The notes: generated from the letters alone by a model not told the origin. 20,000 nt of DNA from an uncultured virus (IMG/VR IMGVR_UViG_3300022223_000003) (IMGVR_UViG_3300022223_000003); one strand, 5' to 3'; positions 3,596 to 18,698 are shown, counted from the first letter of the stretch. A program made the numbers and translations.

Positions 3596-4473
3596 CTAAG
3601 CGATGGGTCCGACTGCGGCTGCAATGCGATCCAGCGCGTCTTTGATGGTTGTCGGTGCTGATCCGCTCCAGTTTGCTGGAACCGCTGCCGTATACGCATC
3701 CGTTGTCGCCCCTGCTGCGATCCCATCGAGCTTGCTCTTATCAGCGCCCGTCATGAAACCGTCTGCACCCCTGCAACGACATCCGCATGGAGAGTGCCGC
3801 CAGCTTGATCGCCGTGGCCGTGGATGTGGTCACCACGCGAAAACTGTGTGCTACCTCCCCCCGAACTGCTTGCCCCTACGTTATTGGCTGATGCCGAGGC
3901 GAGAACCTGATGGGTGTGATCAGACCTGGCAGGTGTCGTAGAGGTTCCAGCGGAACCGACGTTTCCTGATACGCTGGGCGGAGCGCCTGGTGTCCCGAGG
4001 TCATGTTTGTGATCGGCGCGAGCGGGCACAGCACTCGCACCTGCCGAAGCTGCGGCAAACGTCGAGTTTACAGGGGCCGCGGGGGCACCGAGGTCGTGTT
4101 TGTGGTCGGCACGAGCAGCGCTTGTAGCCGTACCTACCGCAGCTGCTGCAAAAGTAGAATCCGCGGGTGTTGTGGTAGCGAGCGGTGTCGTCGGGATCTC
4201 TGCCCAGCTCCCGTCCCAGACGTAGATTTCGCCCAGGCTCTCGACGTAGGTCGAGTACCCTTTGTTCGGTGTGATGTAGCTCCAAGCAGAGCCGTTCCAC
4301 TGAGCGATGTCGCTGGCATGTCCGACCCACGCTCCTGTCGGAACAGTGTCTACGATGTAACGATCCCCGTCCGCCGGGGCGCCCGGGGGATCGTTGATGA
4401 TGTCCAATACGCTCTCTTGCCAGTCGAAAGCAGAAATAGAGCCGGTGCCAACAATGTTGATCTTGCTTCCCAC
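3596..4473 (-). CDS. Fibre/spike protein with N-terminal DUF2793-like domain and four xRxDHxH repeats; reading frame broken at 3768-3771
   Basis: SVLD...PPGAPADGDRYIV...PTGAWVGH...IAQWNGSAWSYITP..G..YV is DUF2793-like. Repeats are ARADHKH x2, ARSDHTH and SRGDHIH. The 240-aa frame stops at 3751, but a -1 shift in the G4 run continues into GADGFMTGADKSKLDGIAAGA...PTTIKDALDRIAAAVGPIA* (stop 3596-3598), giving 292 aa. Confidence 0.8.
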
Positions 4474-4477
4474 GCTT

Positions 4478-4690
4478 CTACCTCATCGGTCGGCTTAGGT
4501 TCCACCACGTACCTGCGAGCAACGCCGCGGTGAGCAACCACATCCCGGGGGTCATCCCTTCGGTCTCGCCGAGGCCTTGGTAGCCGCAGTTGCAACGACC
4601 GAGCCCTGTGAGGTCTGAGTAATCCCTGTCGCCGTCGATGGGTGTCCTCAACGGTACGTAGGTCGTGGTCTGTTGCAGCACTCCGAGCAT
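4478..4690 (-). CDS. 70-aa single-TM microprotein starting MLGVLQQ (paralog B)
   Basis: ATG at 4690 overlaps the upstream stop (TGATG); C-terminal TM MWLLTAALLAGTWW; contains LTGLG and YQGLG. Confidence 0.75.
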   Translation of the reverse strand: MLGVLQQTTTYVPLRTPIDGDRDYSDLTGLGRCNCGYQGLGETEGMTPGMWLLTAALLAGTWWNLSRPMR

Positions 4691-4872
4691 CACGTCGACT
4701 CCGTTGTGTGTGGTGTCACCCACGCCCAAATCATCCAAGCCCCGATCACACCCCCCAAAACCCAAAACATCGCGGTTTTGGGTTCGCCTTTCTCCAAACC
4801 GTTCCGAACCGCATCGCCATAAACATAGCGTTGTGGTTGGTAAACCTCGGGTTGTTGCAACACCCCGAGCAT
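4690..4872 (-). CDS. 60-aa single-TM microprotein starting MLGVLQQ (paralog A)
   Basis: ATG at 4872 overlaps the upstream stop (TGATG); TM AMFWVLGGVIGAWMIWAWV; corresponds to the C-terminal part of track ORF 4690..5094. Confidence 0.75.
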   Translation of the reverse strand: MLGVLQQPEVYQPQRYVYGDAVRNGLEKGEPKTAMFWVLGGVIGAWMIWAWVTPHTTEST

Positions 4873-5339
4873 CACGCTTCCAACAGTTTCTCGAATGCGC
4901 TCTGAAACATCTTGAAACGCACGGGGTAGCCGCGGTTCAGCTCGTCGACGAGATTCGGAGGGAAGTTCTTGAGCTGTTCGATGCGCACCTTCGCGTTGTG
5001 TTTCCCGAGACGTTGTGCGAGATCGCGTCGTGCGCGGACGTCTGCGAGTGTGAGAACGGTGCTGCCGTCCTGCGCCTGCTCTGCTTCGACCCACACCTTC
5101 TCTTCTCCGACCCGCGCTTCTAGAGCGGAAACACGCTTGTTGCTTTGCATCTCGCCAACTCCGTCGAGGTATTTGATAGCAGATAGGGACGGAACGCTCT
5201 TCGGCATACGAAAATGACGAGCTTGGGTAGTGTAAAAACTTACAGTTTCACCTGTCCTTGTGTCCCTATAGCTATCGTCGCACGGATACTCTTTATCTGC
5301 TCCAATCAGACACCCCCCACCCGTGTGTTTCCAAGGCAT
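4872..5339 (-). CDS. Hypothetical protein (155 aa)
   Basis: Coupled at both ends (TAATG at 5337-5341, TGATG at 4870-4874); contains LDGVG. Confidence 0.75.
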   Translation of the reverse strand: MPWKHTGGGCLIGADKEYPCDDSYRDTRTGETVSFYTTQARHFRMPKSVPSLSAIKYLDGVGEMQSNKRVSALEARVGEEKVWVEAEQAQDGSTVLTLADVRARRDLAQRLGKHNAKVRIEQLKNFPPNLVDELNRGYPVRFKMFQSAFEKLLEA

Positions 5340-6193
5340 TAGATCCTCTCCGACCCGATATGCGGTGAAAGCAGGTTGTAGGCGAAGAGCAGAAGAAGCG
5401 CGGCCGACCCGGTCTTTGCCACCGAAGCCTTGGCTACTGGTTTGATGACCTTGCCGAACACCTCGGACGGACAGCTCCGAACGGTTGCGATGACGTGTGC
5501 GTAGCTGCCGACACCCGCATTGGCCATGTTGACCATCGCTTGCTTGAGCAGCGTGATGGTCTGAGCGCCATCGGCGTCACTCATCGTGTCATACGCCGTC
5601 GTCAGCGCGACGGTGTACACCCAGAGCTGGGTCGGGAGCTTGCCCAACAGCGCCGCATCGGGTTCGTAGACGGGTCCGACACCGAGGGCTTGCCCGGCGT
5701 AGCGCATCCCGGCCCACTTCTTCGGCGTCTGCACGACGGCCATGTAGAACGTGCCGCCCTTGTCCTGCTGCCAGCGCCACGTCACAGGTTCGCTCTTGAA
5801 GCTCGTCACCTTGCTGGTCTTGTACCCGGCCTTGCGCATCAGCTCTCTGACCTGCGCGTCCAGGACGCTCTTGTTGGCGCGTCCTCGGTCGGTGAAGACA
5901 AAGCGCACGACCATCGACGGGGTCTGACCCGAGACGAAAGGTTCTTTCTTGACGGTGAAAGGGCCGCGACCGAGCACGAGCAAAGGATCGACCGTGATTT
6001 CCTCGTTGGCCGGAGCCGCGTGAAAACCGCTGATGTATCCCATTCCGCCGCCGGGTGCCGGGGCGAAGGGATGGGGTACGGTGCTCGTCCAGCGCGTGGA
6101 AGCCAGAGCGCCCCCGGGCGCACGGCGGAACGGCCGCGGCGAGTTGCTCGTCCAGCGCGACCCTGCGATCCCTTGTCCGACCTCCATCACCAT
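5339..6193 (-). CDS. Hypothetical protein (284 aa) with N-terminal tandem repeat and C-terminal hydrophobic anchor
   Basis: SRWTSNSPRPFRRAPGG / TRWTSTVPHPFAPAPGG repeat; C-terminal GSAALLLLFAYNLL; GC3-rich codon usage. Confidence 0.8.
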   Translation of the reverse strand: MVMEVGQGIAGSRWTSNSPRPFRRAPGGALASTRWTSTVPHPFAPAPGGGMGYISGFHAAPANEEITVDPLLVLGRGPFTVKKEPFVSGQTPSMVVRFVFTDRGRANKSVLDAQVRELMRKAGYKTSKVTSFKSEPVTWRWQQDKGGTFYMAVVQTPKKWAGMRYAGQALGVGPVYEPDAALLGKLPTQLWVYTVALTTAYDTMSDADGAQTITLLKQAMVNMANAGVGSYAHVIATVRSCPSEVFGKVIKPVAKASVAKTGSAALLLLFAYNLLSPHIGSERI

Positions 6194-6206
6194 TTCGTCA
6201 CCTGCT

Positions 6207-6434
6207 TCAGATCATCTGGCACGGGCAGTCGTTGGCCGCGTGGAACGTGACGATCGCGTTGTTGCCCTTCTTCATGACCAAGATCCAGTTGCCGAGCGCC
6301 GGTACCCAGTAGACGTGCCCTTTTTCGCTGGAGCTGTCCTCTTTGAACTCTGCCTGGTACTGCCCCAAGAATGCGTGGAGGGGTTCATTCCCTCCTTTCA
6401 GTGAAATCACCTTTTTCGATAAAGACCTTGCCAT
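6207..6434 (-). CDS. Small hypothetical protein (75 aa), C-terminal CPC
   Basis: Fills the gap in the operon; purine-rich leader; protein-like composition. Confidence 0.65.
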   Translation of the reverse strand: MARSLSKKVISLKGGNEPLHAFLGQYQAEFKEDSSSEKGHVYWVPALGNWILVMKKGNNAIVTFHAANDCPCQMI

Positions 6435-6458
6435 TCCTGTTTTTCCCGTTTTTCCATG

Positions 6459-7028
6459 CTACCTGAAACCGGAGACTTCGCTGTCGGTTTCTGGCGAGCG
6501 TGAGAGCATCCACCAGACGAGGCCTCCAAGCGCCAGTAGCGGAAGCATGGCCACGGCACCGCCTGTTTGGCCGAACCCGGGCCGTAGCTCGGACGCGGGC
6601 TCGCGGTAGGAGCCTCCGCGGAGGGCTCCCAGACCGTCTGTGAGCGGCGCCGGGGAGTAGTTCATGGCCTCGGCGTAGCTTTCACCGCCGATGGACACAT
6701 CCCGGTAGGGAGCCGCCTGGACACGATAGCCGGGCGGCGACCCGGGTTGCGCTGCGGCGTTCCAACCGACGTTGATGTTGCCCTTCCGGGAGTCGACGGT
6801 GGGCCGGAGCTTGTAGGGGTGCCAAGGCGTGGGCCACGACACCCCAGCCTGTGAGCGAAGGTAGTCGTTGGTGTTCTGGATCTCGGTCAGAACGTCATCG
6901 CCCCGCGTGATGGTCAGGGCATCGCTCGCGGGGATGGTAGCCGACAGCGCAGACGCAAGACCGCGGTCGTGGAGCGCTTGGTTGGCGCCCACGGTATCTC
7001 GCTGCGGCTGTCCGGTCCCGAGGGTCAT
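6459..7028 (-). CDS. Hypothetical protein (189 aa) with C-terminal TM anchor
   Basis: Start reassigned to ATG 7028 (MTLGTGQ), which is preceded by AGGAGG; TM AVAMLPLLALGGLVWWML; contains DGLGA and PGFGQ. Confidence 0.8.
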   Translation of the reverse strand: MTLGTGQPQRDTVGANQALHDRGLASALSATIPASDALTITRGDDVLTEIQNTNDYLRSQAGVSWPTPWHPYKLRPTVDSRKGNINVGWNAAAQPGSPPGYRVQAAPYRDVSIGGESYAEAMNYSPAPLTDGLGALRGGSYREPASELRPGFGQTGGAVAMLPLLALGGLVWWMLSRSPETDSEVSGFR

Positions 7029-7038
7029 CGACGACCTC

Positions 7039-8061
7039 CTACTGTGCCCACATCGGCTGGCGCACGGCGTACCGACCTCCGCGGGCAACCTCCCGGCGGA
7101 TCTGCCGCGCTCGGGCGAGCTTCTGACCGAGTACGGCGATACGGTGCACCTCCTTGGCCCGCGCCCGCCGCGTCATGCGCACGCGCTGGAGCCTCTTGGC
7201 CGCTGCCTGGGCCTTCTTCTTCAGGGCGACGACGGTGCCCTTGCCCGCGACCTTTCGGACGTTCTTGGGCAGCGGTAGCGCGGCGTTGTCGAGATCGTCG
7301 GCGGTTTGGAGTTCGGCCAACGCGCCCTGGAAACCGGCCAGGCCGATGCTGCTGGGCATCAACGGCAACCCCGGAGCCGAGGACGAACCGCCCGAATAGT
7401 TGGCTCCTTCCGAGGCGTCGATGACGTTGGAGCGCGCCAAGACCCCCGGCATGATGGGCTTGCCGTACTCGTCGACCTGTGCCCGCTGCTGACCGATGCG
7501 ACCGTCCGCGGGGTCGAGCTGGCGGGCCGCCTCGACGGCCTCCATGGCTCCAGCGAGGTCTTCATCGACGGCCGACGCCGTCTGGCCGAGTCCGGCGCGG
7601 CCGTAGCCGCCCTGAATGAAGGGGGCACCGAGTCCGGCGCGGCCGTAGCCACCCTTGATGAAAGAGTCGGCGAGACCGGCACTGCTCGGGGTCAGCGGCA
7701 AACCTCCTGTCCACGACGAACCGCCGCTGTACAACGCGCCGCCGCTGTAGTCGATGACGTGACGGCGCTCCGGGAGCACGCCGGGGATGTTCCCAAGGCT
7801 CCCGGGCCACTCGCCGCCCTGGCTGAACGCGGCCAAGCCCACCGAGCTGGGCATCAAAGGGAGCCCCCGGGCGTGGGAAGAGCCGCCGGAGTAGTTGGCG
7901 CCCTCCGACGCATCGATCACGTTCCGACGCGCCAGAACACCCGGCATCACGGGCCGACCGTACTGATCCACCTGCGCCCGCTGCTGGCCGATGCGACCGT
8001 CGCTGGGGTCCAGAGCTGCCAAACCGTCGAGGACGGCAATCTGTTCTCCGAGTCCGCTCAT
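7039..8061 (-). CDS. Repeat-containing protein (340 aa) with highly basic C-terminus; putative core/cement virion protein
   Basis: Strong SD; three copies of PGVL...VID.S.GA.YSGGSS...GLPL.PSS.GLA; two FI.GGYGRAGLG; K/R-rich tail. Confidence 0.85.
   Translation of the reverse strand: MSGLGEQIAVLDGLAALDPSDGRIGQQRAQVDQYGRPVMPGVLARRNVIDASEGANYSGGSSHARGLPLMPSSVGLAAFSQGGEWPGSLGNIPGVLPERRHVIDYSGGALYSGGSSWTGGLPLTPSSAGLADSFIKGGYGRAGLGAPFIQGGYGRAGLGQTASAVDEDLAGAMEAVEAARQLDPADGRIGQQRAQVDEYGKPIMPGVLARSNVIDASEGANYSGGSSSAPGLPLMPSSIGLAGFQGALAELQTADDLDNAALPLPKNVRKVAGKGTVVALKKKAQAAAKRLQRVRMTRRARAKEVHRIAVLGQKLARARQIRREVARGGRYAVRQPMWAQ
7330..8012 (-). repeat. Intragenic direct repeats (two ~185-bp copies, one ~115-bp partial copy, two ~36-bp copies)
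   Basis: Approx. 7830-8012 matches 7330-7520; partial copy at approx. 7675-7790; ccgagtccggcgcggccgtagcc at 7586 and 7628. Confidence 0.85.
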
Positions 8062-8063
8062 GA

Positions 8064-8075
8064 TCTCATTCTCCT
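8064..8075 (-). promoter_or_regulatory. Conserved translation-initiation box AGGAGAATGAGA (copy 1)
   Basis: Exact 12-mer, 2 nt before ATG 8061; identical copies at 13296 and 13963. Confidence 0.8.
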
Positions 8076-8098
8076 GTGACGGTAGCGCCAGTCACAGC

Positions 8099-11000
8099 CT
8101 ACCTTGTTTCGTCTTCCTTGTCGCCTTTGGGCCAGAGCACCGCCGCCAGCGCCGCCGCTCCCAGAAACCACGGTCCGACGCCCATACCCGCTTTCTGGAT
8201 GGGTGGCGGGGTGGGTGCCGTAGGCACAGGGGGCACTGTTATATGGATGGTGGGGCCAGCGACTTTCACCGCAACATCCTGAGCCGCCTGAGCTTCTCCA
8301 GCCGCCTGCTGGGCCTCTCGCGCCGTTGCGGCGGCCTCCTCACGTTTCTGATCGGCCGTTTGCCTCAGCCGGACGTCCTGGGGCTCTTGTTGAGCCTGGA
8401 TCTCGGCGCGCTGCGCTTCGGCCTCTTTCTGCGTCGCCACATTCGTTTTTTCGATGGCCTCTCGGGTCTTCTGCTGAGCGACGGCTTCGACCTTCTGGAC
8501 TTCGGCCGGTTTCGGGGGCGGTGGAGCGGGCGCGGGGGTGGGGACGGCACGTGGCATCGGGGGCGGTGCGGGAGTAGGCGCAGGCGCGGGCGCCCCGGGC
8601 TTGAGGTCGATGGCCTCTCTCTTCTTCACCGCGGTGGCCGTCACCAACGTCGGCTTCTTGAAACGCAAAAGCAGCGCCTGGTCTCGCATCGGCAAAGGCG
8701 CAACGTTCGCCGCCGTTGGGGCTCGCCCGTGGGTCGCTTCCCACTGCCCAGCATTTTTCGAGACGAGATCGGCGAGAGCCTGCGGCAGCGCGATGTAGGA
8801 CGCCCCGCGCCACCCTTTCTTGGTGCGTCCCTGCTCGACAAGAACCCCCGTTTCTCGGAGGTATGACATCCACATGGTTTCTGGCAGATCGTAGTCGACC
8901 GGGAAAATCAGCGCCGCGAGCTGGAGAAGACCATCGCGAGTTGGTTTGTCTGCAAAACCCGTCTGTTTGACGCCTGTGGGCTTCACCTGCTTCTGGACAA
9001 CGGTGCGTCCCGGCTTCGCCATCTCCAACAAGGCTTCTTGCACATCGAGGATTGCGACGATGTAGGTGGACTTGGCAACAGCGGTCTTCAAAACTTTTTG
9101 TTGCTCTGCGGCGGATTCAGCGCGACGTACATCTGCGGCCACATTCTGCCGATACAGCTCCGCAAAACGCTCGATAGGTTGCGCGAGTGCGGGCAGCGTT
9201 TTGATGTTGCTGTTCGAGACAGCAGTTTCCAGGTATTGATTCCACGCCTGGTTACTTGCCTCTCGAACCCGTTCGGTCTTGAAACGCGGCCCGAGTTGCT
9301 GACGCATCAGATCTTGAAGCTGTTGCACTGCGGCCCCAAAAACAGCCGTTCGAGCAACCAGGGTGTATGCCGCCCTTGTCGGCTTGTCGAAAGAACCGCT
9401 GACCTTTACTGCGGAGTACACGGCCTTCTCTTGGGCAGTCAGTTTCTTCCCTCGACCTGCCTGTGCCGAGAGAACCGTGTGGCGGATGCTCTCCTGGAAG
9501 GTCTTGACGCTGATCGTGACAACAGATTCCTTCAGCGCATTGGCCACCATACTGGCGCGGAAGCTCTTGGTTGCCTGCGCTCTCTTCTTCACGAGCTGCG
9601 CCTGTGTGTTGAGCGCTACCAGAACTGAGGTGCGAACGTAGATCTCGGTATCGCCGCTCGCGAGCCGAACGAGATCGCCCGCAGGGGTTTTCGTAGAGGT
9701 GTTCTCGAAAAACGTCTTGATTGCGTCGGCCAGCTCCTTGGGTCCGCCGCTGGGGTCAAACTTCTTGGTGCTAATCCCAAGGGCGTTGATGGAGGCAATG
9801 ATCTCCGCGGGGTTCACCGCGGTGAAATCCTTGATACGGGCGGCTTCTGCGGCTCGTGCCGCCGCCAGCTTCTGTGCAGCGTCTTTCAGACTTTGAGCGA
9901 CCTGTGGAGGTAGCTTCACGGACATCTCGTCATTGCTGACGAGCCTCCCTTTCACCAACGCAGCTGCCCATGCGTCCCACCCAGGAGTGTCCTCTTGGAC
10001 ACCCATCCATCGAAGCAAGAGCGTCCGCATCTCGCCCTTCCAAGGGCCCGTTGGAGCAAAAGGCTCGCGGCTGATGCGTTTTTCAAGGATCGCTGCATTG
10101 AAAGCCTGGCGCAACGTCGAGGTCTTCACCGAAGATGTCGATTGCTGAGCGATCTTCGCCACAGCTTCAGCCAGAAGATCGCGTTTGGGCCCCGGGGGAG
10201 GCGCTTTGGGAACCGCCAGCTCTTGGAGTCGGTCCCAGGTCGCCCGCAAAACAACGAGCTTGTCTGCTGCCGCCTCGATGCGAGGATCCAGCTTGTGTTT
10301 CTGCGCTTGCGCCTTCCACGCTGCCAACACCTGCTCTCCGCTCGTCGGTTTCGGCACCCCGAGAAGACCCAAGAGCGACACCATCTCGCCGCCGGTGACG
10401 GTGGCGACTTGCTCCGAGGGGAGAGCAACAAGCACAGGGGGCTTCGGCGCGGCGTCGGGCGACACCTTCGCGTCGGCGTCGGCTTTCAGAAGCAAAAACG
10501 TCTTTTCGCTCACGCGAACGTTTCGGAGATCGGCGGTTGCCTTGACGATGTAGGGGTCGAGACCGCGCTTGTTGGCGCTCTCCTTCCATGCGCCCTCCGT
10601 AGTCGGTCCTGTTTTCCCATCCGACAGTCGTTCGGGTGGGTGTCCTAGTCGCTTGAGGATGCTCTGGACGTCGTGCGTGTCGACGACGACCCTCTTGTCT
10701 TCCGGCCGCGTCGGAGGTGCTGCTTCGCCTACTGCCGCCGCCTTCAACGTCTTGTAGGTCGCGGCACTGACAGTTGCGGCTCTTCCGCCGGTGGTGCCCC
10801 GGATGGTCGTATTGAGCTTCCGGGCGGCGGCAACAGCCTGATACTTCGCCTTGGTGGTGGGGCCGTATTTCCCGTCGGTGATGCGAGCCGGATCTTGTCC
10901 CAACGCGATCAAAATCTTCTGTAGCTCGTCCACCGGGACGCGGAGCGAACCGGGAGCAACACCGGGTTTGGGGGCAACTGGAGCGGGTGCCTTCGGTTTG

Positions 11001-11467
11001 GAGCCGATCGGCCGAGCCGCTTCATCTCGAAGACGACCTGTTTTCAAGGCCTTATCCCGCAAGCGGCCCAACGCCTGTTGGCTGATCCAGACGTTCTTGT
11101 TGTCGACGACCTTATCTACGATGCGTGGGGCGATCTTCGAGTGAGGCTCCTTGAACAGTTTGGCGTAGCGGCTCCACGCAGCATCCGTCTCGACGTCGTA
11201 GAAACCCGTCTTGGTGACGTACACCTGAAGGGCGTTGAGCATGTTCTGCAACGACGTCGTCTTGACGGTCGTTGCAGTCACAGCCGCCGTCGCCGCTGGC
11301 TGGGCCGGAAGACGCCCAGAGGGCGCCGCGATACCGAACTCCCCCAACGCCTGGCTGTGGCGTTGCTGCCCGTAGCCGTAGCCGCTCAGGCTCGTCGGCA
11401 CGTCGCCGACCGTTGAAAACGCAGCGAGGTAGGAGCCCAACAGGAGGTTGTCGTCGTAGGGGTTCAT
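8099..11467 (-). CDS. Large (1122 aa) C-terminally anchored protein with multiple degenerate peptidoglycan-binding (PG_binding_1-like) repeats
   Basis: ELQKILIALG...DGKYGPTTKAKY and DVQSILKRLG...DGKTGPTTEGAW match the LQ..L..LG...DG..GP.T..A pattern; more degenerate copies follow; Pro-rich linker, coiled coil, TM PWFLGAAALAAVLW. Confidence 0.8.
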   Translation of the reverse strand: MNPYDDNLLLGSYLAAFSTVGDVPTSLSGYGYGQQRHSQALGEFGIAAPSGRLPAQPAATAAVTATTVKTTSLQNMLNALQVYVTKTGFYDVETDAAWSRYAKLFKEPHSKIAPRIVDKVVDNKNVWISQQALGRLRDKALKTGRLRDEAARPIGSKPKAPAPVAPKPGVAPGSLRVPVDELQKILIALGQDPARITDGKYGPTTKAKYQAVAAARKLNTTIRGTTGGRAATVSAATYKTLKAAAVGEAAPPTRPEDKRVVVDTHDVQSILKRLGHPPERLSDGKTGPTTEGAWKESANKRGLDPYIVKATADLRNVRVSEKTFLLLKADADAKVSPDAAPKPPVLVALPSEQVATVTGGEMVSLLGLLGVPKPTSGEQVLAAWKAQAQKHKLDPRIEAAADKLVVLRATWDRLQELAVPKAPPPGPKRDLLAEAVAKIAQQSTSSVKTSTLRQAFNAAILEKRISREPFAPTGPWKGEMRTLLLRWMGVQEDTPGWDAWAAALVKGRLVSNDEMSVKLPPQVAQSLKDAAQKLAAARAAEAARIKDFTAVNPAEIIASINALGISTKKFDPSGGPKELADAIKTFFENTSTKTPAGDLVRLASGDTEIYVRTSVLVALNTQAQLVKKRAQATKSFRASMVANALKESVVTISVKTFQESIRHTVLSAQAGRGKKLTAQEKAVYSAVKVSGSFDKPTRAAYTLVARTAVFGAAVQQLQDLMRQQLGPRFKTERVREASNQAWNQYLETAVSNSNIKTLPALAQPIERFAELYRQNVAADVRRAESAAEQQKVLKTAVAKSTYIVAILDVQEALLEMAKPGRTVVQKQVKPTGVKQTGFADKPTRDGLLQLAALIFPVDYDLPETMWMSYLRETGVLVEQGRTKKGWRGASYIALPQALADLVSKNAGQWEATHGRAPTAANVAPLPMRDQALLLRFKKPTLVTATAVKKREAIDLKPGAPAPAPTPAPPPMPRAVPTPAPAPPPPKPAEVQKVEAVAQQKTREAIEKTNVATQKEAEAQRAEIQAQQEPQDVRLRQTADQKREEAAATAREAQQAAGEAQAAQDVAVKVAGPTIHITVPPVPTAPTPPPIQKAGMGVGPWFLGAAALAAVLWPKGDKEDETR

Positions 11468-11907
11468 CAGAACTGCACCTGCGCGACGACCACCTGAAGC
11501 TCCTGCGGGCCTCCTGGAGCGACGACCGCAAAGAGCTGCTCATCAGGAAGCAACAGCTGCATGAACCCGCTGGGTGCGAAAGCACCGCCGCCCATCTGCC
11601 CGTTGACATTGAAAGGTGCGCTGGTGTTGTTGCCCAATGCTTCTTGCTTGCTGAAAAGCACTTCCACCGCGGCCGGAGCCGGGTTCTCTCCCCGGAGTGA
11701 AACTCCGACAAACATGAACACCTTGGCGGCGCCGATGTTCCTTGCCACTTCGGTGACACGATCATTGCGCAGCCGCAGGCTCGTGCCCTTGGCCATGGCG
11801 AGCCGGTGCGGGCCGACCACGCTCGCCCAGAGCGCTCGGGCATCGAGCAGCCCCTGGCCGGAGCTGAACTCGATCTTGAAGGGGATACCCGGCTGTGCGC
11901 CGTCCAC
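11467..11907 (-). CDS. Beta-rich 146-aa protein; putative minor capsid/penton-like single jelly roll
   Basis: GGAGG SD plus GTG; alternating beta pattern ending LLLPDEQLFAV...LQVVVAQV; third gene of the capsid-like cluster. CDS is well supported, function is inferred. Confidence 0.55.
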   Translation of the reverse strand: MDGAQPGIPFKIEFSSGQGLLDARALWASVVGPHRLAMAKGTSLRLRNDRVTEVARNIGAAKVFMFVGVSLRGENPAPAAVEVLFSKQEALGNNTSAPFNVNGQMGGGAFAPSGFMQLLLPDEQLFAVVAPGGPQELQVVVAQVQF

Positions 11908-11918
11908 GGAGACCTCCG

Positions 11919-12509
11919 CTAGAAGTTACCCCGGCAGACGACGTAATCGCCGAGTAGTTGAATGCCAAACTCCTTGGTGGCCCCCACGAGCGCCGCCCAG
12001 CGGGCGGTGTCGATGGTCCACTCGACGTCGAGATCGGTTCCCGGGACCGTGATGTAGACACCGTCCCACTCGGCGATGTTGCCCGAACCGCTCCTCGAAA
12101 GCAGCGACTGCATGCTCACGGGGCGCTTGAAGACGGTGAAATCGCGGCCTTGCTCCTGCACCTGAAAGCTGACGAGGAATGGCGCGGCACCCCCGAGATC
12201 GGGGTCCATCATGAAGCCAGTCATCCGGCGGAACGCGAAGTTGTAGCGCGACAACAGCGTCACCGGGCGGCTCTGGGTGACGATGGCGCCGGTGGGATCG
12301 ATCCGAACGGTGAACTGGAGATCCTCGATCCGCATGTCCTCCGGCGGGAGCAACCCGCTGGAGAGATCGGAGTAGTATTGAATGAGGGCACCGGGCGGAA
12401 CGGGGATTCCAGCATCCGGCCCTTCCTGCGGCGCTTGCACGCCGGGGGTCATGGTACGCGCCCCTGGAACGGCGGCACCCAACGCTTGTCCTCCCAAACC
12501 TCGCAGCAT
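11919..12509 (-). CDS. Beta-rich 196-aa protein; putative second (minor) single-jelly-roll capsid protein with Gly/Pro-rich N-terminal leader
   Basis: AAGGAG SD; about 8 predicted strands ending FGIQLLGDY, parallel to ITNYLHGLI of the upstream protein; N-terminus MLRGLGG. Confidence 0.55.
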   Translation of the reverse strand: MLRGLGGQALGAAVPGARTMTPGVQAPQEGPDAGIPVPPGALIQYYSDLSSGLLPPEDMRIEDLQFTVRIDPTGAIVTQSRPVTLLSRYNFAFRRMTGFMMDPDLGGAAPFLVSFQVQEQGRDFTVFKRPVSMQSLLSRSGSGNIAEWDGVYITVPGTDLDVEWTIDTARWAALVGATKEFGIQLLGDYVVCRGNF

Positions 12510-12540
12510 CTCGAATCTCCTTGGCCCTGCTCCGAGGGCG

Positions 12541-12568
12541 AAAACAAAAAGGCCGCCCGAAGGCGGCC
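12541..12568 (-). terminator. Rho-independent terminator downstream of the putative major capsid gene
   Basis: Minus strand GGCCGCC-TTCG-GGCGGCC-TTTTTGTTTT: 7-bp GC stem, cUUCGg tetraloop, U tract. Confidence 0.9.
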
Positions 12569-12625
12569 GACGTTATCCCACCCGGAGTAGAAGAAACGTC
12601 GGCCGCAGTCGGAGAGGCTCGCCTG

Positions 12626-13291
12626 CTACTTGGTGACCGCGGCGCGGATCAGGCCGTGCAGGTAGTTGGTGATGATGACGGGCGTGTCCAGCGTCGGCTG
12701 CACGACCGTCACGGTGTTGGAGAAGCCCGCGGGGTTGGGCTGCGCCGTCCAGGTGCGGGGATCGAAGCGCAGAAGGCCGTCCAGCTCGTGGTTCTGGTTG
12801 AGCATCTGCTTCTTGATCAGCCGCGCCGCCGAGGCGGTGGCCGGGACACCGACGGACATGATCGAGAGGTTGTTCTCGGTCGTGTTGCCGTACATGCCGT
12901 ACCCGGAGGGGAACTTCACGGCGGGTCCCTCGTCCTGGAGGATGTCGTTGATCTTCAGGCGGTAGTAGGAGTTCTCCACCAGCTTGAGGACGTCCCGACC
13001 GCTGGTGATCGAGTCGCCGACCGCCAGGCGGAAGTAGAGCCCGATGCGGTCGAGCACCATCGATTCGCCCGCCGACAGCTTGCGGGGGGTCTTGATGTTG
13101 CTGTCCGTGTCGCGCTTGCCCTGGACGTCCTGGAAGAAGACGATCTCGGTGCCGGTGGGGATGGCTTCCTGCGCTGGAACGACGGCGGAGTCCCACTTGT
13201 CGCTCTCGCGGAAGTCTCGGATGTTGACGACCTGGCCCGTATCGGTGTCCCGAAACAGTCCCGGCTGCCCTTCAATCGGTTGAAGTGCCAT
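12626..13291 (-). CDS. Putative major capsid protein (single-jelly-roll type), 221 aa
   Basis: Strong SD box, very strong GC3 bias and own terminator indicate high expression. Beta-rich with WDS...FFQ..GK..TDSN...L...I...PSGYG...L.G pattern that I associate with SJR-like capsid proteins; no HK97 features recognised. Confidence 0.6.
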   Translation of the reverse strand: MALQPIEGQPGLFRDTDTGQVVNIRDFRESDKWDSAVVPAQEAIPTGTEIVFFQDVQGKRDTDSNIKTPRKLSAGESMVLDRIGLYFRLAVGDSITSGRDVLKLVENSYYRLKINDILQDEGPAVKFPSGYGMYGNTTENNLSIMSVGVPATASAARLIKKQMLNQNHELDGLLRFDPRTWTAQPNPAGFSNTVTVVQPTLDTPVIITNYLHGLIRAAVTK

Positions 13292-13295
13292 AGTT

Positions 13296-13307
13296 TCTCA
13301 TTCTCCT
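13296..13307 (-). promoter_or_regulatory. Conserved translation-initiation box AGGAGAATGAGA (copy 2)
   Basis: Exact 12-mer, 4 nt before ATG 13291. Confidence 0.8.
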
Positions 13308-13357
13308 GATCATGGTTGGTTTGTTGGCCTTCGGGTTGTGTTCAGGGAGCTGCCGAT

Positions 13358-13963
13358 CTACGAGAGATACGGAGCGTAGCCTCCCAATCCGCCCAGGGTT
13401 TCCTCCTGCACGACGGTCCCTTCGAGACCGAACAGTGCTTCGGGTGTGACGGAGGGGTCTCCGACACCCTGGAACGCTCCCGGCGACGCGGTGACGCCGG
13501 TGGTCTCCAGCGCCGCGAGGGCTTCCATTCCCTCGTCGCCGCCGTAGCTCGTCATGTAGTCGTCGCCCTCGCCGAGCGTCGCCACGTTGAGCGGCTCGCT
13601 TCCGGTCAGCTCCGCGAGCGCGGTCTGAAGGAAGCTCGCCAGTGCGAAGCCGCCGACACCGCCGAGGACGCCCATGGCGGCCTCGCGGTTGTACTCGTAG
13701 AGGCCACGTGCCCCCACGACGCCTGCCACGAAGACGGTGCCGGACATGACGGCCGACCGCAGCAGCGGGTTCTCGATCATGGTGGAGAGGTTGAGCCTTT
13801 CGGCCAGCTCCTTGGCTCCCCATCCGGCGAGCAGGATGGCGCCGCCACCGGCGGTGCTCGCCCACAAGGCCTCGCGGAGCATGTTGACGTCGAGGAACTG
13901 TTCCATGCCCTCGTAGTCGCCAAACTCCAGGCCCATCATGTCGTCATACGCATCCAGATTCAT
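13358..13963 (-). CDS. Multi-TM (about 3 helices) protein with acidic Gly-rich termini, 201 aa; putative major virion membrane protein
   Basis: Start reassigned to ATG 13963 (MNLDAY) behind the SD box; hydrophobic Gly-rich helices; lies immediately upstream of the capsid-like gene. Confidence 0.8.
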   Translation of the reverse strand: MNLDAYDDMMGLEFGDYEGMEQFLDVNMLREALWASTAGGGAILLAGWGAKELAERLNLSTMIENPLLRSAVMSGTVFVAGVVGARGLYEYNREAAMGVLGGVGGFALASFLQTALAELTGSEPLNVATLGEGDDYMTSYGGDEGMEALAALETTGVTASPGAFQGVGDPSVTPEALFGLEGTVVQEETLGGLGGYAPYLS

Positions 13964-13974
13964 CTCATTCTCCT
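13963..13974 (-). promoter_or_regulatory. Conserved translation-initiation box AGGAGAATGAGA (copy 3)
   Basis: Exact 12-mer whose last A is the A of ATG 13963. Confidence 0.8.
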
Positions 13975-14008
13975 TTGCTCGACCCACGATGGGCACGAGG
14001 TCTGCGCT

Positions 14009-14818
14009 TCAGCCTACACGAAAAACTTTACTCGCCGCCACCATTCTCTTCGGTGCTTCCCACCCAAAAGGCATATTTACTGATGCGTCCATGGAAACCC
14101 AGTGGGTTGGATTGGCTCTCGGGAAACCAGCCTGAGCGTAGATATGGTTCCAATCCCTCGCGTCTTTCGTTCGGATCACCTTATACCTGCACGGGATGCC
14201 GAGCGAAAGTAGGGTGGCGCACGTCAACGAGCTGTAGTCGTCGCAGTCACCCGTCCCAAGAGCCAACGTGTGGCCTGGTTTTTGGTAGGTGTCGACGCCC
14301 AGAATGTCACTGGTGTAGCGGACGTCCCTACGCATGTTTCTGAAGACATTTCGGGCAGTTGTCACGTCTTTCGCCGTCAAACGAGGTGGAACCTGACGGC
14401 GCAAATCACCAAAAACAGCTTTTGCCTCGCGGACGTTGTCTTTTTCAGGGATGCACCACCGATTTCCGCACTTACGCGACACGGACTGGCGGGCGAAGGC
14501 ATACACGACGGGGTCACGTTTTCCGTCGTCCGCCAGGCCGTTGAGGTAACGGATGCGGTCACGGAGGGTGCGGATACGGTAAGAGCGCAACCGCATGGGT
14601 ACCGCGGCGTGGTTGCGTGTCGGTACTACGGCCCGGCCACTGTTGTGGAAGGCCCTTCCCGGTACTCTGGCGCCGGGGCGCGGTGCCGGAATCGCCCCGC
14701 CTCGCGCCCGCATCCCTGACAGACCTCCACGACCTGTCAGCTCGTCGGCGGCCTTCTTCAAATGGTGTGCTCCGATAACGAGCGACGCCAAACCGAGAGC
14801 GACGTTACCGAAGGCCAT
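14009..14818 (-). CDS. Transglutaminase-like (papain-fold) cysteine protease with N-terminal membrane anchor
   Basis: Catalytic triad motifs GDCDD, WNHIY and WVSMDAS; VRYTSD and LLSLGIP.R typical of the Transglut_core superfamily; N-terminal hydrophobic helix. Confidence 0.88.
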   Translation of the reverse strand: MAFGNVALGLASLVIGAHHLKKAADELTGRGGLSGMRARGGAIPAPRPGARVPGRAFHNSGRAVVPTRNHAAVPMRLRSYRIRTLRDRIRYLNGLADDGKRDPVVYAFARQSVSRKCGNRWCIPEKDNVREAKAVFGDLRRQVPPRLTAKDVTTARNVFRNMRRDVRYTSDILGVDTYQKPGHTLALGTGDCDDYSSLTCATLLSLGIPCRYKVIRTKDARDWNHIYAQAGFPRANPTHWVSMDASVNMPFGWEAPKRMVAASKVFRVG

Positions 14819-14901: not shown

Positions 14902-17091
14902 TCAGGCGGGCTCGCCGTCTCCCCCGGGCTCCACGTCGTTTGGCGTGGGTTCATCGTCGATCTCCGTCAAATCCCCGTCATCTGGCGGGGCCATCAGGTC
15001 GTCTCCCGTGACTTCCCCGTCGCCGTCCAGCTCGATCTCGGTGAGCTGGTCCCGAACAGCGTCGAAATGACGCATGAGCGCGTCCACCGCACGTTCCGCC
15101 AGACCTGGATCGATCACGTGAAGCTCGGCGAGGCCCCCGAAAAACGCCTTGAGGTATTGCAGCGAAGCGCGCTTGTTCCCGTCGCGAACGTACCCGAGGA
15201 ACTGTTCGGAAAAGGGGCGCCAATCCTCGAACTCGGCGAAGTGGATGAGCATCGCCACCGTTCTTCCGACCAGCTCACCTTCGTCCGCCGCGTTGTCGAG
15301 CGCCTGAACGTGGTCTTGGGTCAGCGTCGGCAGTTCCGGCACCTTGCCTGTCCGTTGAACCACCGCGGCGGCGGCCTGTTGCACTTGTTCGGCCGATGGT
15401 CCTACCGCCCCGTAGGGACCGACAACCCCTTGCGGGGGCACGGGGCGTTGGGGGGTCTGTGGGGGCGGCTGCTGAGCTGCCTGGGGGGGCATCGGCCGTT
15501 GAGCACCCTGCGGAGACTGCGGCTGTTGGACGGCCTGGGGAGGTGTCTGGGGAACCGGGTACATCTGCTGGGGCGCCATAGGGGCTCCCGGGGTCATCTG
15601 AGGGGCGGCCATCTGTTGAGTGCGCTGAAGCATCCGTTGTTGGAGGGCGAGACGCTGGCGTTCAGCCTCCATAGCGGTTCTTTGCTGTGCTTCGCCCTGG
15701 CCGATCCGCGCCCGAATCGTGTTCGCGATGCTTCCCGCGAAGTCCCGGTTCGAGAAAAGAGCCCCCAGGGCGTCGAAAAAACCCGCGGATACCCCGCCCT
15801 CTTGGGACCGGCTGAAGTTCTGCGCAACGTTCATCACGGCGGCCAAATCGTCGATGGTGCTCTTGAGCGTCGACGACCTGTCTTCCTTTTTCGTCACCAG
15901 CTCAAGGACGTCCTTGACGGAGAGGCTGTTGTTGTCCTGCTGGAGCAACTTCGCCTTCAAGAACTCCTTGAACTCGTCGTCAGGGGCTTCGCCTCCCCCA
16001 CCCATCATAGTCATGAGCATCCCCATCGCTTTGACGAGTTCGGTGAGCCCTTCCGTGGGCGACTGCTGCGGCGGGGGCGCCGGGGGCGGCGGCGGTGGAG
16101 CTGCGGCACCGATGGAGCCGTCCTCCGTCAGCTTCATCAAAAGCATCTTCATGACCGGGTCTTCTTCCTTGGGTTTGGAAAGAAGAGCCATCATCATCTG
16201 ATTCTGACGATCAGCCTGAGCTTTGTTCTCCTGCATCATCATCATCATCATCTGCATCGTCCGGTCACCGGACGCTGCAAGCGCGGCCTGCGCTTCATTG
16301 ATCTGTTCTTTGGCTTCGGCCGCCTTGACTTCGGCGTTGCCTGAAAGTTTTTCTTGTACTTGCATGAGACCTGCCAGCATTTCGAGAGGATCGGTTGTTT
16401 CTCGCGGTTTTGTCACTTCACGCATCTGTTGTAGGTAGCGCTCGTTCTGTTTCTCGTTGCGTTCCATCATGGCGGACACGAGATCCAGGGCGCCCGTCGC
16501 GTCCTTTTTCTGCGGGACGCCGAGTAGACGAACGGTGCCCAGTTCCATCTCCCGATTGGCCGCATCAACCCCCACCAAGTCGTACTCGCCGGGGCCGTAG
16601 TCGTCCATAACGTACCGCGTCAAAAACGACTCGAAATCAGAGAAGTTGTTGAGGTCTTCGGCGCTGTAATCGCTGATGTACCCGCGATTACCCTTGTCGC
16701 GCTTGTAGACCTTGACCCGAGCGGCCCCCGGCGCTTTGTCCAAGAGGTTTTTGGGCATCCCCTTCCCGGCCCCTTGCGGCTTTCGTGCTCGGGCGGGTTT
16801 GGGGGGAGGCACCATCGGTGCAGAGGGCCCAGGGATAGGAACGATTCCTTCATCTTCAGGTGCGGGCGAAGGAACGACGACCTCCACCTCGGCGCTGGAC
16901 GCCACTTCCGCGGCGCCCCCCTTCCCTCTCCGCCCGTTCGACGGTTTACCGTCCGTTTCCACGTCGACGGACGAAGCGACCTCCTCAGCCGCGTCTCTGG
17001 CGACCTCTTCTGGATCGGCTTTCGCGTCGATGCCGAGAGCGCTCAACGTGTCGTTGATGTCGCGGCCTTTCTCTGTCGAAGCTGTTGGCAT
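14902..17091 (-). CDS. 729-aa low-complexity protein: acidic/Pro N-terminus, small globular domain (YGPGEY), Met/Gln-rich coiled coils, poly-Pro and PQ tracts, helical C-terminal domain
   Basis: Long ORF with GAGGA SD, 7 bp downstream of the recombinase; (ATG)6 run at 16234-16251; no Walker motifs seen. Confidence 0.85.
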   Translation of the reverse strand: MPTASTEKGRDINDTLSALGIDAKADPEEVARDAAEEVASSVDVETDGKPSNGRRGKGGAAEVASSAEVEVVVPSPAPEDEGIVPIPGPSAPMVPPPKPARARKPQGAGKGMPKNLLDKAPGAARVKVYKRDKGNRGYISDYSAEDLNNFSDFESFLTRYVMDDYGPGEYDLVGVDAANREMELGTVRLLGVPQKKDATGALDLVSAMMERNEKQNERYLQQMREVTKPRETTDPLEMLAGLMQVQEKLSGNAEVKAAEAKEQINEAQAALAASGDRTMQMMMMMMQENKAQADRQNQMMMALLSKPKEEDPVMKMLLMKLTEDGSIGAAAPPPPPPAPPPQQSPTEGLTELVKAMGMLMTMMGGGGEAPDDEFKEFLKAKLLQQDNNSLSVKDVLELVTKKEDRSSTLKSTIDDLAAVMNVAQNFSRSQEGGVSAGFFDALGALFSNRDFAGSIANTIRARIGQGEAQQRTAMEAERQRLALQQRMLQRTQQMAAPQMTPGAPMAPQQMYPVPQTPPQAVQQPQSPQGAQRPMPPQAAQQPPPQTPQRPVPPQGVVGPYGAVGPSAEQVQQAAAAVVQRTGKVPELPTLTQDHVQALDNAADEGELVGRTVAMLIHFAEFEDWRPFSEQFLGYVRDGNKRASLQYLKAFFGGLAELHVIDPGLAERAVDALMRHFDAVRDQLTEIELDGDGEVTGDDLMAPPDDGDLTEIDDEPTPNDVEPGGDGEPA

Positions 17092-18684: not shown

Positions 18685-18698
18685 CGCCAGCACACCTG

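Follow-up and report, generated by a model that had tools for sequence, protein, structure and literature searches.

Does a short glycine motif that recurs in the particle genes of an uncultured virus mark the sites at which a virus-encoded protease matures the particle? The question arises from the window, a stretch of 20,000 nt of the uncultured virus IMGVR_UViG_3300022223_000003, in which the region of interest (4478–14818) comprises 13 ORFs on the minus strand. A sequence-only reading had described an adenovirus-protease-like motif in many putative virion proteins of this region and had named a Cys-His-Asp enzyme encoded there as the candidate maturation protease. Among eukaryotic jelly-roll viruses, adenovirus is one example in which a protease matures the particle by cutting at Gly motifs. 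Our literature search found no description of Gly-motif protease maturation in tailless prokaryotic viruses, nor of the pairing of enzyme and tag considered here.

The particle module and its virus group

The window is the particle (morphogenesis) module of a group of tailless viruses with circular genomes of 80–104 kb and no prior description. Its genes, in the order of their strand, are as follows.

17099..18022, minus strand: tyrosine recombinase (PF00589, E 6.4e-23), first of the gene run; homologs in 26 loci
14902..17091, minus strand: acidic Pro/Gln-rich protein, 729 aa, adjoining the enzyme gene in relatives; homologs in 31 loci
14009..14818, minus strand: transglutaminase-fold Cys-His-Asp enzyme, 269 aa (PF01841, E 1.6e-11)
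13358..13963, minus strand: multi-pass membrane protein, 201 aa, likely the major virion membrane protein; family present in 64 of 73 loci
12626..13291, minus strand: probable major capsid protein 1, 221 aa, single jelly-roll; 280 homologs
11919..12509, minus strand: probable second capsid protein, 196 aa, with a variable N-terminal leader opening with LRGLG; family in 62 of 73 loci
11467..11907, minus strand: conserved protein, 146 aa; family in 56 of 73 loci
8099..11467, minus strand: tail-anchored protein, 1122 aa, with peptidoglycan-binding domain(s) (PF01471, E 2.4e-7); homologs in 23 loci
7039..8061, minus strand: repeat protein, 340 aa, with a basic C-terminal part; candidate core or cement precursor
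6459..7028, minus strand: tail-anchored protein, 189 aa; 17 homologs
6207..6434, minus strand: small conserved module protein, 75 aa, without the tag; homologs in 17 loci
5339..6193, minus strand: tail-anchored protein, 284 aa, with short N-terminal repeats spaced by (G)-L-[GA]; 26 homologs
4872..5339, minus strand: protein of 155 aa with LDGVG at 58–62; start codon uncertain, a later start being chosen by the gene caller
4690..4872, minus strand: tail-anchored protein, 60 aa, absent from the sequence-only reading; C-terminal hydrophobic segment read from sequence
4478..4690, minus strand: tail-anchored protein, 70 aa, with LTGLG at 27–31 and YQGLG at 37–41

Viruses of this group are large and tailless, and they probably enclose a membrane and build the capsid from two single jelly-roll proteins; the membrane is suggested by the 86 C-anchored proteins encoded in the particle gene runs of the group. 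The host is likely bacterial. The 221-aa protein was modelled as a jelly-roll-type sandwich (pLDDT 71.5), and its best structural matches were mostly jelly-rolls, though weak (SPV1 capsid chain, Z 6.6; HCIV-1, 4.7; P23-77, 4.5). Its nearest named Atlas clusters were PM2 P2 and PRD1 P3 domains (0.76–0.77), while the 196-aa protein pointed to P2 domains (0.75–0.76), all of these values lying below 0.9 and serving as leads only. The 146-aa protein, which had zero matches in Pfam and PHROG searches, is a possible penton by its size and position.

The adjacent beta proteins of 221 and 196 aa, placed after a membrane protein, recall P23-77, IN93, SH1, SNJ1 and SPV1. Unlike these single jelly-roll tailless viruses, the present group has much larger circular genomes, in which DNA polymerase A, a primase and a recombinase are encoded; the relatives also carry separate amidase, CHAP and M23 lysins. 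An FtsK/HerA-type packaging ATPase was not found with five queries and their profile in five long relatives, with gene calls covering 84–93% (best E 0.075), and no match to the enzyme was found in P23-77, IN93, SH1 or SNJ1.

Enrichment and conservation of the tag

The 13 pentapeptides named in the sequence-only reading (14 occurrences) were all present at the places and in the minus-strand ORFs to which it had assigned them. It had also proposed a comparison with shuffled sequences, which bore out an excess of the [LVFMY] forms. Within the 13 ORFs of 4478–14818, G[LVFMY]G occurred 22 times against 8.6 expected, a count that none of 2000 shuffles reached, and hydrophobic-x-G-[LVFMY]-G occurred nine times against 2.4–2.5; in the remaining 12 ORFs of the window, G[LVFMY]G was close to expectation (5 vs 4.3–4.6). 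These patterns were chosen from the same sequence on which the enrichment was counted. The form [MIL]xGxG fits just six of the 14 named occurrences and was not clearly enriched in the 13 ORFs (9 vs 5.1–5.4, p 0.06–0.09), nor were [MIL]xGG (5 vs 5.1–5.4) or any GxG (37 vs 32.5).

The short Gly/hydrophobic tag was recovered in held-out relatives and not in enzyme-less controls. In the relatives, hydrophobic-x-G-[LFM]-G stood 2.7–5-fold above shuffles. The strict tag was counted 18 times against 6.5 expected in held-out, mutually non-homologous accessory proteins (12 vs 4.4 under strict membrane masking), and 12 times against 2.6 in a distant complete genome, G006 (9 vs 1.8 under strict masking), which was analysed later with the pattern already fixed. 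For the six complete or long relatives, observed and expected counts were 4/1.0, 5/2.0, 4/1.0, 6/1.8, 7/2.0 and 12/2.6, the last being G006. No enrichment (4 vs 8.6) appeared in the control set, 227 proteins from 11 cultured tailless viruses without an enzyme match, and the relatives differed from these controls with binomial p values of 0.0009 and 5e-5. This comparison cannot separate the enzyme from the lineage, since the capsid, host and genome size of the 11 controls are different too. In these controls the looser core [LFM][GAS][DE] was raised as well (68 vs 41.2); soluble non-structural proteins showed a mild excess of bare GLG (40 vs 27.6); and among 127 accessory proteins the strict form is carried by 15, the majority lacking it. 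By these statistics, flexible segments of membrane-anchored and core-type proteins carry a short linear motif under selection, (hydrophobic)-x-G-[L/F/M]-[G/A/S], which is often shortened to L-[G/A/S].

Without a common tag, the enrichment would have to stem from membrane-proximal sequence rich in Gly and Leu, from short modules of common ancestry and from the choice of pattern. The pattern was indeed refined after the data had been seen, with about 20 variants tried; the fold enrichment is modest; membrane proteins of the control viruses reached 10 vs 4.5 with looser masking; and several of the named copies are not conserved. However, the enrichment withstood local 30-residue shuffles, homolog removal and strict masking. 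It held in G006 with the pattern fixed, in each of the six relatives, and in the enzyme's own linkers, where G[LFM]G occurred 24 times against 6.9 in the poorly conserved anchor-to-domain segments of 76 homologs, while G[VIY]G was not raised (21 vs 21.8). We regard such a by-product as improbable.

A likeness to adenain specificity as a whole was not supported. In held-out sets, [MIL]xGG was at chance (25 vs 24.2, 8 vs 7.2 and 6 vs 8.7), the sole exception being 7 of 26 close enzyme linkers against 2.5 expected, and [MIL]xGxG (34 vs 24.5 overall) fell to chance once x = L/F/M was removed (21 vs 21.2). GVG showed no enrichment family-wide (53 vs 52.4), and the best conserved copies of the tag terminate in A, D, E or S, not G. 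Whereas adenain sites are (M/I/L)XGX↓G and (M/I/L)XGG↓X (arrow, cut), the tag here often lacks the initial hydrophobic residue, the first Gly or the last Gly.

Conservation of the individual copies in homologs was mixed: GGGMG, RPGFG and, as an atypical form, FQGVG were retained; TDGLG and MSGLG shrank to L-G; and LRGLG, both RAGLG copies, LGGLG and LSGYG were not retained. In the 284-aa protein, GGGMG (48–52) has G50 in 25 and G52 in 22 of 26 homologs, followed by an invariant S-G-F at 55–57. RPGFG (149–153) in the 189-aa protein keeps G151 in 17/17 homologs and F-G in 11/17, while TDGLG (130–134) has G132 in 0/17 and both L133 and G134 in 17/17, its conserved core being L-G-[SA]-L. FQGVG (164–168) in the 201-aa protein represents aromatic-x-G-[FLM]-small, with G166 in 32 of 59 rows (11 gaps) and [FLM]167 in 52/59; LGGLG (190–194) of the same protein is an insertion present in 1/59. 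A further conserved tag of this family is M-M-G-L-E at residues 9–13 (G11 47/59, L12 44/59), and G[LFM][GASDE] was found in 40 of 43 N-termini against 17.0 expected. For LRGLG, [MIL]xGxG occurred in 0/44 leaders and G[LFM][GAS] in 8/44 (3.0 expected); for LSGYG (27–31, 1122-aa protein), [MIL]xGxG occurred in 4/21 N-termini (1.3 expected), with the motif itself in the closest homologs only. The 70- and 155-aa proteins had zero homologs among the loci. Since GVG is at chance family-wide and the 155-aa protein is without homologs, LDGVG is probably a chance match.

The 340-aa protein contains a 30-residue module three times (starting at residues 48, 102 and 213), each copy terminating in G-L-A: G75-L76-A77, L130-A131 and G240-L241 are all present in 23/23 homologs. 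It also has a conserved I-A-V-L-D-G-[LFI] at 8–14 and a basic C-terminal part with 24 K/R in 75 aa. Its initial MSGLG retains G3 in only 3/23 homologs, and the two RAGLG copies are an insertion shared with 3–4/23. The module recurs in 9 of 17 homologs of the 189-aa protein. The 221-aa capsid candidate has no enriched form of the tag, and capsid-type proteins mostly lack it.

The transglutaminase-fold enzyme

The enzyme at 14009–14818 is, as the sequence-only reading had it, a Cys-His-Asp enzyme of a family different from adenain. It matches PF01841 with 44.9 bits (cut-off 23), and C192, H225 and D244 are invariant in 27/27 homologs; in a wider alignment, Cys was present in 150/150, and His and Asp in 141/141 and 140/141 aligned. 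By this conservation, the enzyme appears catalytically intact. An N-terminal membrane anchor is followed by a flexible basic linker with GGLSG (residues 31–35) and a catalytic domain at about residues 60–269. Insertions at the catalytic Cys occur in 22 of 150 homologs, with an intein Pfam match in 4/4 tested. The family extends to 2092 clusters at E 1e-10, some of them non-viral. Of the 35 loci with the enzyme gene, 31 have it immediately ahead of the genes for membrane and capsid proteins; in G004 and G005, its direction of transcription leads away from the capsid operon.

The fold itself cannot name the reaction because transglutaminases, PNGase, PeiP/PeiW and LapG match about equally (Z 8–9.6). 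The top match was 3kd4 (Z 12.8, 3.2 A, 141 aligned), followed among others by transglutaminase 3 (9.5), factor XIII (9.2), PeiP (9.0), PeiW (8.7) and LapG (8.0). These matches at Z 8.0–9.5 would also suit an enzyme carried in the virion that attacks the host envelope (cell-wall peptide, S-layer or adhesin) during entry or exit, or a transglutaminase cross-linking the particle, with the tag being structural, such as a turn at the membrane surface. Cys117 and Cys122, which co-vary (115 homologs with both, 26 with neither, none with one), could form a disulfide, suggesting an oxidising compartment, and a peptidoglycan-binding domain is present in the 1122-aa protein. An envelope role is countered by the separate amidase, CHAP and M23 lysins of the relatives, cross-linking by a tag without Gln or Lys, and LapG-like action by the absence of the LapG site [TAP]AAG from linkers (0 vs 1.8) and tail-anchored domains (0 vs 2.4). 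Overall, we find such roles unlikely.

Several known enzymes share parts of this design. PeiP and PeiW, phage-encoded transglutaminase-fold hydrolases, are lysins of methanogen phages; the present enzyme is instead membrane-anchored, heads the particle genes and probably belongs to viruses of bacteria. The periplasmic proteases LapG and DvhG (BTLCP) act on proteins tethered to a membrane, which they cleave at a short motif of small residues. LapG shares the R-Y-x-x-D ... G-D-C-[DE]-D-Y block and the Cys-His-Asp triad, and was the best PDB sequence match, a weak one (4u65_E, E 0.0036). Possible counterparts of the acidic calcium-binding motif that this family has next to its active site are D171 (in 145), D176 (139), D191 (138), D193 (137) and D194 (105 of 150), which align with LapG acids. 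Excerpts of PMC13090378 describe DvhG as anchored by an N-terminal membrane helix and a disordered linker, which on that description resembles the layout here. The enzyme matched no BTLCP family profile, with PF01841 and PF04473 as the only Pfam matches at E 0.1; the LapG Z score is below those of several other superfamily members, the enzyme is viral, and no LapD partner was seen.

As in adenovirus, a virus-encoded cysteine enzyme coincides with a short motif built on Gly that recurs in many precursors of internal particle proteins, among them a basic repeat protein (the 340-aa protein here) as a possible core precursor. An adenain-type catalytic order was rejected: Cys192-His225-Asp244 stands against His54-Glu71-Cys122 in AVP (adenain), the latter as given in excerpts of PMC4246237. 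The same excerpts give the pVI site as IVGL↓G, which in that form matches the pattern enriched in this virus group. The enzyme further differs from AVP, which acts with DNA and peptide cofactors, in its transglutaminase fold and membrane anchor, and cleavage at the tag is here predicted.

In the phage collection, the enzyme matched only gp34 of SSIP-1 (26.8%, E 2e-5, two records of one genome; profile match E about 1e-22), annotated as 'structural protein'. As the excerpted PMC6356626 and PMC6260650 describe it, SSIP-1 is a membrane-containing phage that has no tail and two types of capsid protein. Its gp34 follows the Gln-rich gp33, a position held here by the 729-aa Pro/Gln-rich protein, without a sequence match. 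SSIP-1 differs in genome size (44 kb vs 83–104 kb), in having gp34 anchored at the C-terminus rather than the N-terminus, and in capsid proteins without detectable similarity (hhalign probability about 1%). Tag enrichment was absent from SSIP-1 (2 vs 1.7; 0 vs 1.2 under strict masking), as was enrichment of G[LM][GA] (13 vs 10.3, p 0.22). With the enzyme present in SSIP-1 but the tag not enriched, the link between enzyme and tag is circumstantial.

Maturation or docking

We favour, tentatively, the reading that the tag is a maturation-cleavage site for a non-adenain protease. The membrane-anchored enzyme would be packaged on the viral membrane, cut particle proteins at the tag and, by cleaving the tag in its linker, release itself from the membrane anchor. 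It would also trim the leaders off tail-anchored proteins and divide the 340-aa protein at each G-L-A that closes a module. Papain-like folds usually read a hydrophobic P2, so the cut would probably fall after the small residue following L/F/M. An adenovirus-style maturation would thereby have been reached by convergence with a different protease family. Basic residues follow the anchor in 74 of 95 enzymes and in 32 of 50 tagged tail-anchored proteins (6 opposite); under the positive-inside rule, this could place the enzyme and the tags on opposite sides.

Alternatively, the tag could stay uncleaved and serve in sorting, binding the capsid underside or the 201-aa protein and gathering membrane proteins, including an enzyme with another job. 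The tag tracks the capsid lineage and is not enriched in the enzyme-bearing SSIP-1, capsid-type proteins mostly lack it, and in the 340-, 189- and 284-aa families Gly-Leu-small terminates a longer module that is conserved and mobile, as a binding peptide would be; docking likewise predicts a tag in the enzyme's linker. It leaves unexplained, however, why an intact, intein-targeted enzyme heads the particle genes in 31/35 loci, and a docking site would be expected to be longer and less variable than this tag. We rate docking as somewhat unlikely, yet the main rival of cleavage.

Taken as a whole, the picture may be that of a lineage of large tailless viruses of bacteria, widespread and undescribed, in which no packaging ATPase is recognisable. 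Here an anchored transglutaminase-fold protease, packaged and self-released via a Gly-Leu-Gly tag, would process dozens of membrane and core proteins that carry the tag and are otherwise unrelated, as an independent counterpart of adenovirus maturation at nearly the same site (pVI IVGL↓G); we put this forward still more cautiously than cleavage itself. As a cultured virus, SSIP-1 makes the enzyme's role testable. Should the enzyme cut the tag, the virus group would provide a new family of viral proteases, an instance of convergence with adenovirus in cleavage site, and a compact protease-tag pair open to testing; should the tag be a docking signal, it would offer a handle on protein sorting into the particle membrane of such viruses. 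The finding bears on how tailless prokaryotic viruses select and remodel membrane proteins.

A gene run shared by a group of related viruses

The enzyme under study, a 269-aa membrane-anchored protein of the transglutaminase fold, is encoded in a gene run on the minus strand that starts with a tyrosine recombinase.

Gene run of the window
17099-18022, minus strand: tyrosine recombinase, start of the run
Between recombinase and enzyme, minus strand: 729-aa acidic protein
14009-14818, minus strand: 269-aa enzyme
Minus strand: 201-aa membrane protein, then 221-, 196- and 146-aa proteins
Minus strand: 1122-aa protein, tail-anchored, with a peptidoglycan-binding domain
7039-8061, minus strand: 340-aa repeat protein
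Same run, minus strand: several small tail-anchored proteins

The source contig of the window has 87,650 bases. The 221-aa protein has 280 homologs, and 74 loci were gathered through it, three of them complete records of 83-102 kb with terminal repeats; a fourth complete record (G006, 104 kb), more distant, was reached through the enzyme. Gene order was kept, with the 201-, 196- and 146-aa families in 64/73, 62/73 and 56/73 loci. The enzyme gene was found in 35 of the 73 loci, directly upstream in 31; where a locus had at least 9 kb upstream it was there in 16 of 20, and two of the four such loci lacking it upstream encode the enzyme elsewhere in the genome. In two relatives (G004:C10 27600-31365; G005:C1 55692-59787), the block of recombinase, 729-aa protein and enzyme has the opposite orientation to the capsid operon.

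In its model (pLDDT 71.5), the 221-aa protein is a jelly-roll-type sandwich whose best structural matches were mostly viral jelly-rolls, all weak (SPV1 capsid chain: Z 6.6, rmsd 3.5, 128 aligned). Foldseek at E 0.001 returned no match for this model or for that of the enzyme, and the profile of the 221-aa protein did not significantly match those of gp45 and gp46 from SSIP-1, a cultured tailless membrane phage. In the Atlas, the 221- and the 196-aa protein both lay nearest, among named clusters, to PM2 P2 domains; at 0.75-0.77 this is no more than a lead. We infer that the virus is tailless, has an internal membrane and builds its capsid from these two proteins, each a single jelly-roll. Residues 1-24 of the 221-aa protein (12626-13291) match phrog_473 weakly (E 0.023), recur as the opening stretch of another protein, of 131 aa, in a relative (G001 78785-79180) and, judged by eye, resemble the start of SSIP-1 gp44.

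The relatives carry genes for DNA polymerase A, primase, helicases and lysins (amidase, CHAP or M23). Neither terminase nor portal was matched among 84 screened proteins of relatives, and an FtsK/HerA-type packaging ATPase was not found in the whole circular contigs G001-G005 (83-102 kb), where packaging may proceed by nucleoprotein co-assembly. Several further genes were observed. A 507-aa protein with G-L-G at residue 163 is encoded apart from the run, on the plus strand (95-1618), and could be a particle protein whose gene has moved; its two homologs directly follow the 340-aa gene in loci L020 and L037. A 240-aa DUF2793 protein (3751-4473, minus) with tail-fibre-like PHROG matches is a possible spike, and 2166-2609 looks holin-like, as judged from hydrophobicity alone. 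Genes for 123-aa and 262-aa proteins (18313-19522, plus), conserved in 24 and 18 loci and without a family match, head the capsid operon in some relatives. In relative G001 (L076:11743-12894), a radical SAM/SPASM gene adjoins a small precursor-like ORF. The bins of six loci (L069-L074) carry six different labels (Gemmatimonadota twice, Fimbriimonadaceae, Acidimicrobiia, Actinomycetota and Anaerolineae). Four of these contigs measure 74-96 kb and the two inspected appear wholly viral; thus the bin label may not reveal the host.

The tag is enriched in particle proteins and in the enzyme linker

The sequence-only reading had listed 13 pentapeptides between 4478 and 14818 as a motif resembling the cleavage sites of adenain, the adenovirus protease ([MIL]xGx|G and [MIL]xGG|x). 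All 13, in 14 occurrences, are where it had placed them. In the 13 ORFs of this interval, G[LVFMY]G was counted 22 times versus 8.6 in shuffled sequences and hydrophobic-x-G-[LVFMY]-G 9 times versus 2.4-2.5, both patterns having been picked on the window sequence in which they were counted. The strict adenain forms did not clearly stand out in these ORFs (9 vs 5.1-5.4, p 0.06-0.09; 5 vs 5.1-5.4).

Held-out tests omitted the window and eight near-duplicate loci. Genes of the relatives were called by our own script (84-93% coding), and shuffling was performed inside 30-residue blocks. For 304 proteins encoded by the capsid gene and the genes downstream of it, GLG was the sole raised form (122 vs 71.4), GFG, GMG, GYG and GVG not being raised; for 219 proteins encoded upstream the count was 34 vs 31.4. 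GVG, GYG and GIG were discarded as tag forms after this count. For a set of 127 particle-run accessory proteins with no homology to one another, the tag, hydrophobic-x-G-[LFM]-G, occurred 18 times vs 6.5 (15 proteins vs 6.2); the 40 of them that have a membrane segment held 12 copies vs 3.1. The form [LMF]xG[LFM][SDE] was also raised in the 127 (13 vs 5.3), while the same core minus its leading hydrophobic residue (16 vs 16.1), [LMI]xG[not LFM]G (21 vs 21.2) and [LMI]xGG (25 vs 24.2) were not. With the pattern fixed beforehand, the particle run of G006 gave 12 vs 2.6 and the remainder of that genome 8 vs 5.9; G001-G005, which have core families in common, gave 4/1.0, 5/2.0, 4/1.0, 6/1.8 and 7/2.0.

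This enrichment is unlikely to be an artefact. Some background exists, since counts were raised in non-structural soluble proteins (21 vs 14.8; bare GLG 40 vs 27.6); they were raised outside the particle run of G004 as well (10 vs 5.1). The controls were eleven cultured tailless viruses in which the enzyme had no six-frame match (PRD1, Bam35, GC1, Toil, WheeHeim, PM2, Jorvik, P23-77, IN93, SH1 and SNJ1; 227 proteins). Their total was 12 vs 11.0, with 10 vs 4.5 in the membrane-protein subset. When membrane and hydrophobic stretches were strictly masked, 4 vs 8.6 remained in the controls (2 vs 3.1 in their membrane subset), compared with 12 vs 4.4 in the group, 9 vs 1.8 in G006 and 5 vs 1.1 in the window. 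Enrichment against controls then had binomial p values of 0.0009 and 5e-5, which are optimistic taken singly because about 20 pattern variants were tried. Single-linkage family weighting, which merged unrelated proteins and so diluted the test, still left hydrophobic-x-G[LFM]G two- to three-fold raised in membrane proteins. A looser core, [LFM][GAS][DE], was discarded as evidence because it was raised in controls and non-structural genes too.

The linkers joining the enzyme's anchor to its catalytic domain are an independent set for tag enrichment. An N-terminal hydrophobic segment is present in 95 of the best 150 enzyme homologs, and linkers could be used from 76. These linkers were enriched in G[LFM]G (24 vs 6.9) and, likewise at varying positions, in G[LFM]S (11 vs 3.9); the leading hydrophobic residue was not required here (10 vs 7.1), and adenain-only forms were at chance. 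Twelve of 26 close homologs had G[LFM][GAS] in the linker, vs 5.1 expected.

Copy by copy, conservation of the listed motifs was mixed, and the best conserved copies were absent from the list. In the 340-aa family, G-L-A closes each of three repeats (the first in 23/23) and the start is a conserved I-A-V-L-D-G-[LFI]. The 201-aa family begins M-x-G-L-[ED] (G in 47/59 and L in 44/59 rows), and S-G-F is found in 26/26 of the 284-aa family. For TDGLG of the 189-aa family, the first Gly was kept in 0/17 and L-G in 17/17. The common element is thus G-[LFM]-small or L-small, with a hydrophobic residue preferred two positions earlier. This element and the adenain consensus overlap, the adenovirus pVI site IVGL|G fitting the element found here (available text of PMC4246237), but they are not the same. 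A 30-residue module occurs three times in the 340-aa protein (7039-8061), and 9 of the 17 homologs of the 189-aa protein (6459-7028) carry a single copy, which marks it as a mobile particle module. A viral-contig scan with the 340-aa protein as query gave no match.

The enzyme

Placement of the enzyme in another family than adenain was borne out: it matches PF01841 (E 1.6e-11) with a Cys-His-Asp triad. The active site appears intact and conserved, C192, H225 and D244 being invariant in 27/27 homologs and the Cys in 150/150 of the best 150. The catalytic order of adenain is His-Glu-Cys (available text of PMC4246237), hence the enzyme is not adenain. Adenain did not appear among the structural rows listed for the enzyme model, a listing in which absence does not count against a match. 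This model reached Z 12.8 to 3kd4 and 8-9.6 to transglutaminases, PNGase, PeiP/PeiW and LapG; such a broad match to the transglutaminase superfamily does not point to one reaction. The best solved sequence match was LapG (E 0.0036), in the available text of PMC13090378 a calcium-dependent Cys-His-Asp protease cutting [T/A/P]AAG; its relative DvhG is described there as anchored by an N-terminal helix and a disordered linker.

Twenty-two of the best 150 homologs (P0122, P0131, P0191 and others; also L037:7536-9218) have an insertion exactly before the catalytic Cys. Twelve of the 22 finish in an intein-type Asn-Cys junction, the catalytic Cys being the intein +1 residue, and all four tested match intein Pfam models below the curated cut-off, as expected for an essential site. 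Cysteines 117 and 122 always come as a pair (both in 115 homologs, neither in 26, one alone in 0) and could form a disulfide or metal site. Among 50,697 phage records, the sole enzyme match was SSIP-1 gp34, annotated as a structural protein.

Does the enzyme act on the tag?

The tagged proteins are probably virion proteins on a predicted internal membrane. Tentatively, and at somewhat less than an even chance, we read the enzyme as a maturation protease that cuts the tag. The enzyme would be packaged in the particle, act there as a protease, free itself by cutting its own tag, trim the leaders of tagged proteins and split the basic 340-aa repeat protein, which has 24 K/R in its last 75 residues. 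The latter step would resemble the processing of adenovirus core precursors.

Capsid family and enzyme occur together in every enriched genome, so either of them could be what the tag tracks. A search for enzyme-bearing viruses with another capsid retrieved only gp34 itself with SSIP-1 gp34 as query, and nothing with a distant homolog. SSIP-1 speaks against a link between enzyme and tag: the enzyme is present there and the tag is not enriched (2 vs 1.7; 0 vs 1.2), although gp34-gp37, gp52 and gp53 do contain G-[LM]-[GA]. A host-directed or cross-linking enzyme with an unrelated tag is an improbable alternative. Cross-linking at the tag itself was discarded because the tag has no Gln or Lys.

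An uncleaved docking or sorting tag is a possible explanation, somewhat less likely than cleavage. Topology may also speak against a link between enzyme and tag. Basic residues follow the anchor in 74/95 enzymes and 32/50 tagged tail-anchored proteins. In the simplest topology, without signal peptides, all large domains would lie on the cytoplasmic face, a known position for tail-anchored bacterial proteins whose tails are basic; the positive-inside rule taken literally would put enzyme and tags on opposite sides. A predicted complex between the enzyme domain (56-269) and one repeat of the 340-aa protein (46-90) scored 0.03 and is uninformative.

Our literature search, which covered listings and abstract openings and left subscription papers mostly uncovered, found no paper on this virus group, the tag or the enzyme's role. 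The word "protease" is absent from the main text of a survey of prokaryotic double jelly-roll viruses (PMC5894146), and the NO16 structure paper mentions a protease only for adenovirus (PMC13552765). In conclusion, the tag and the enzyme are real and the virus group is undescribed. If cutting is shown, it would be a new form of protease-directed virion maturation.
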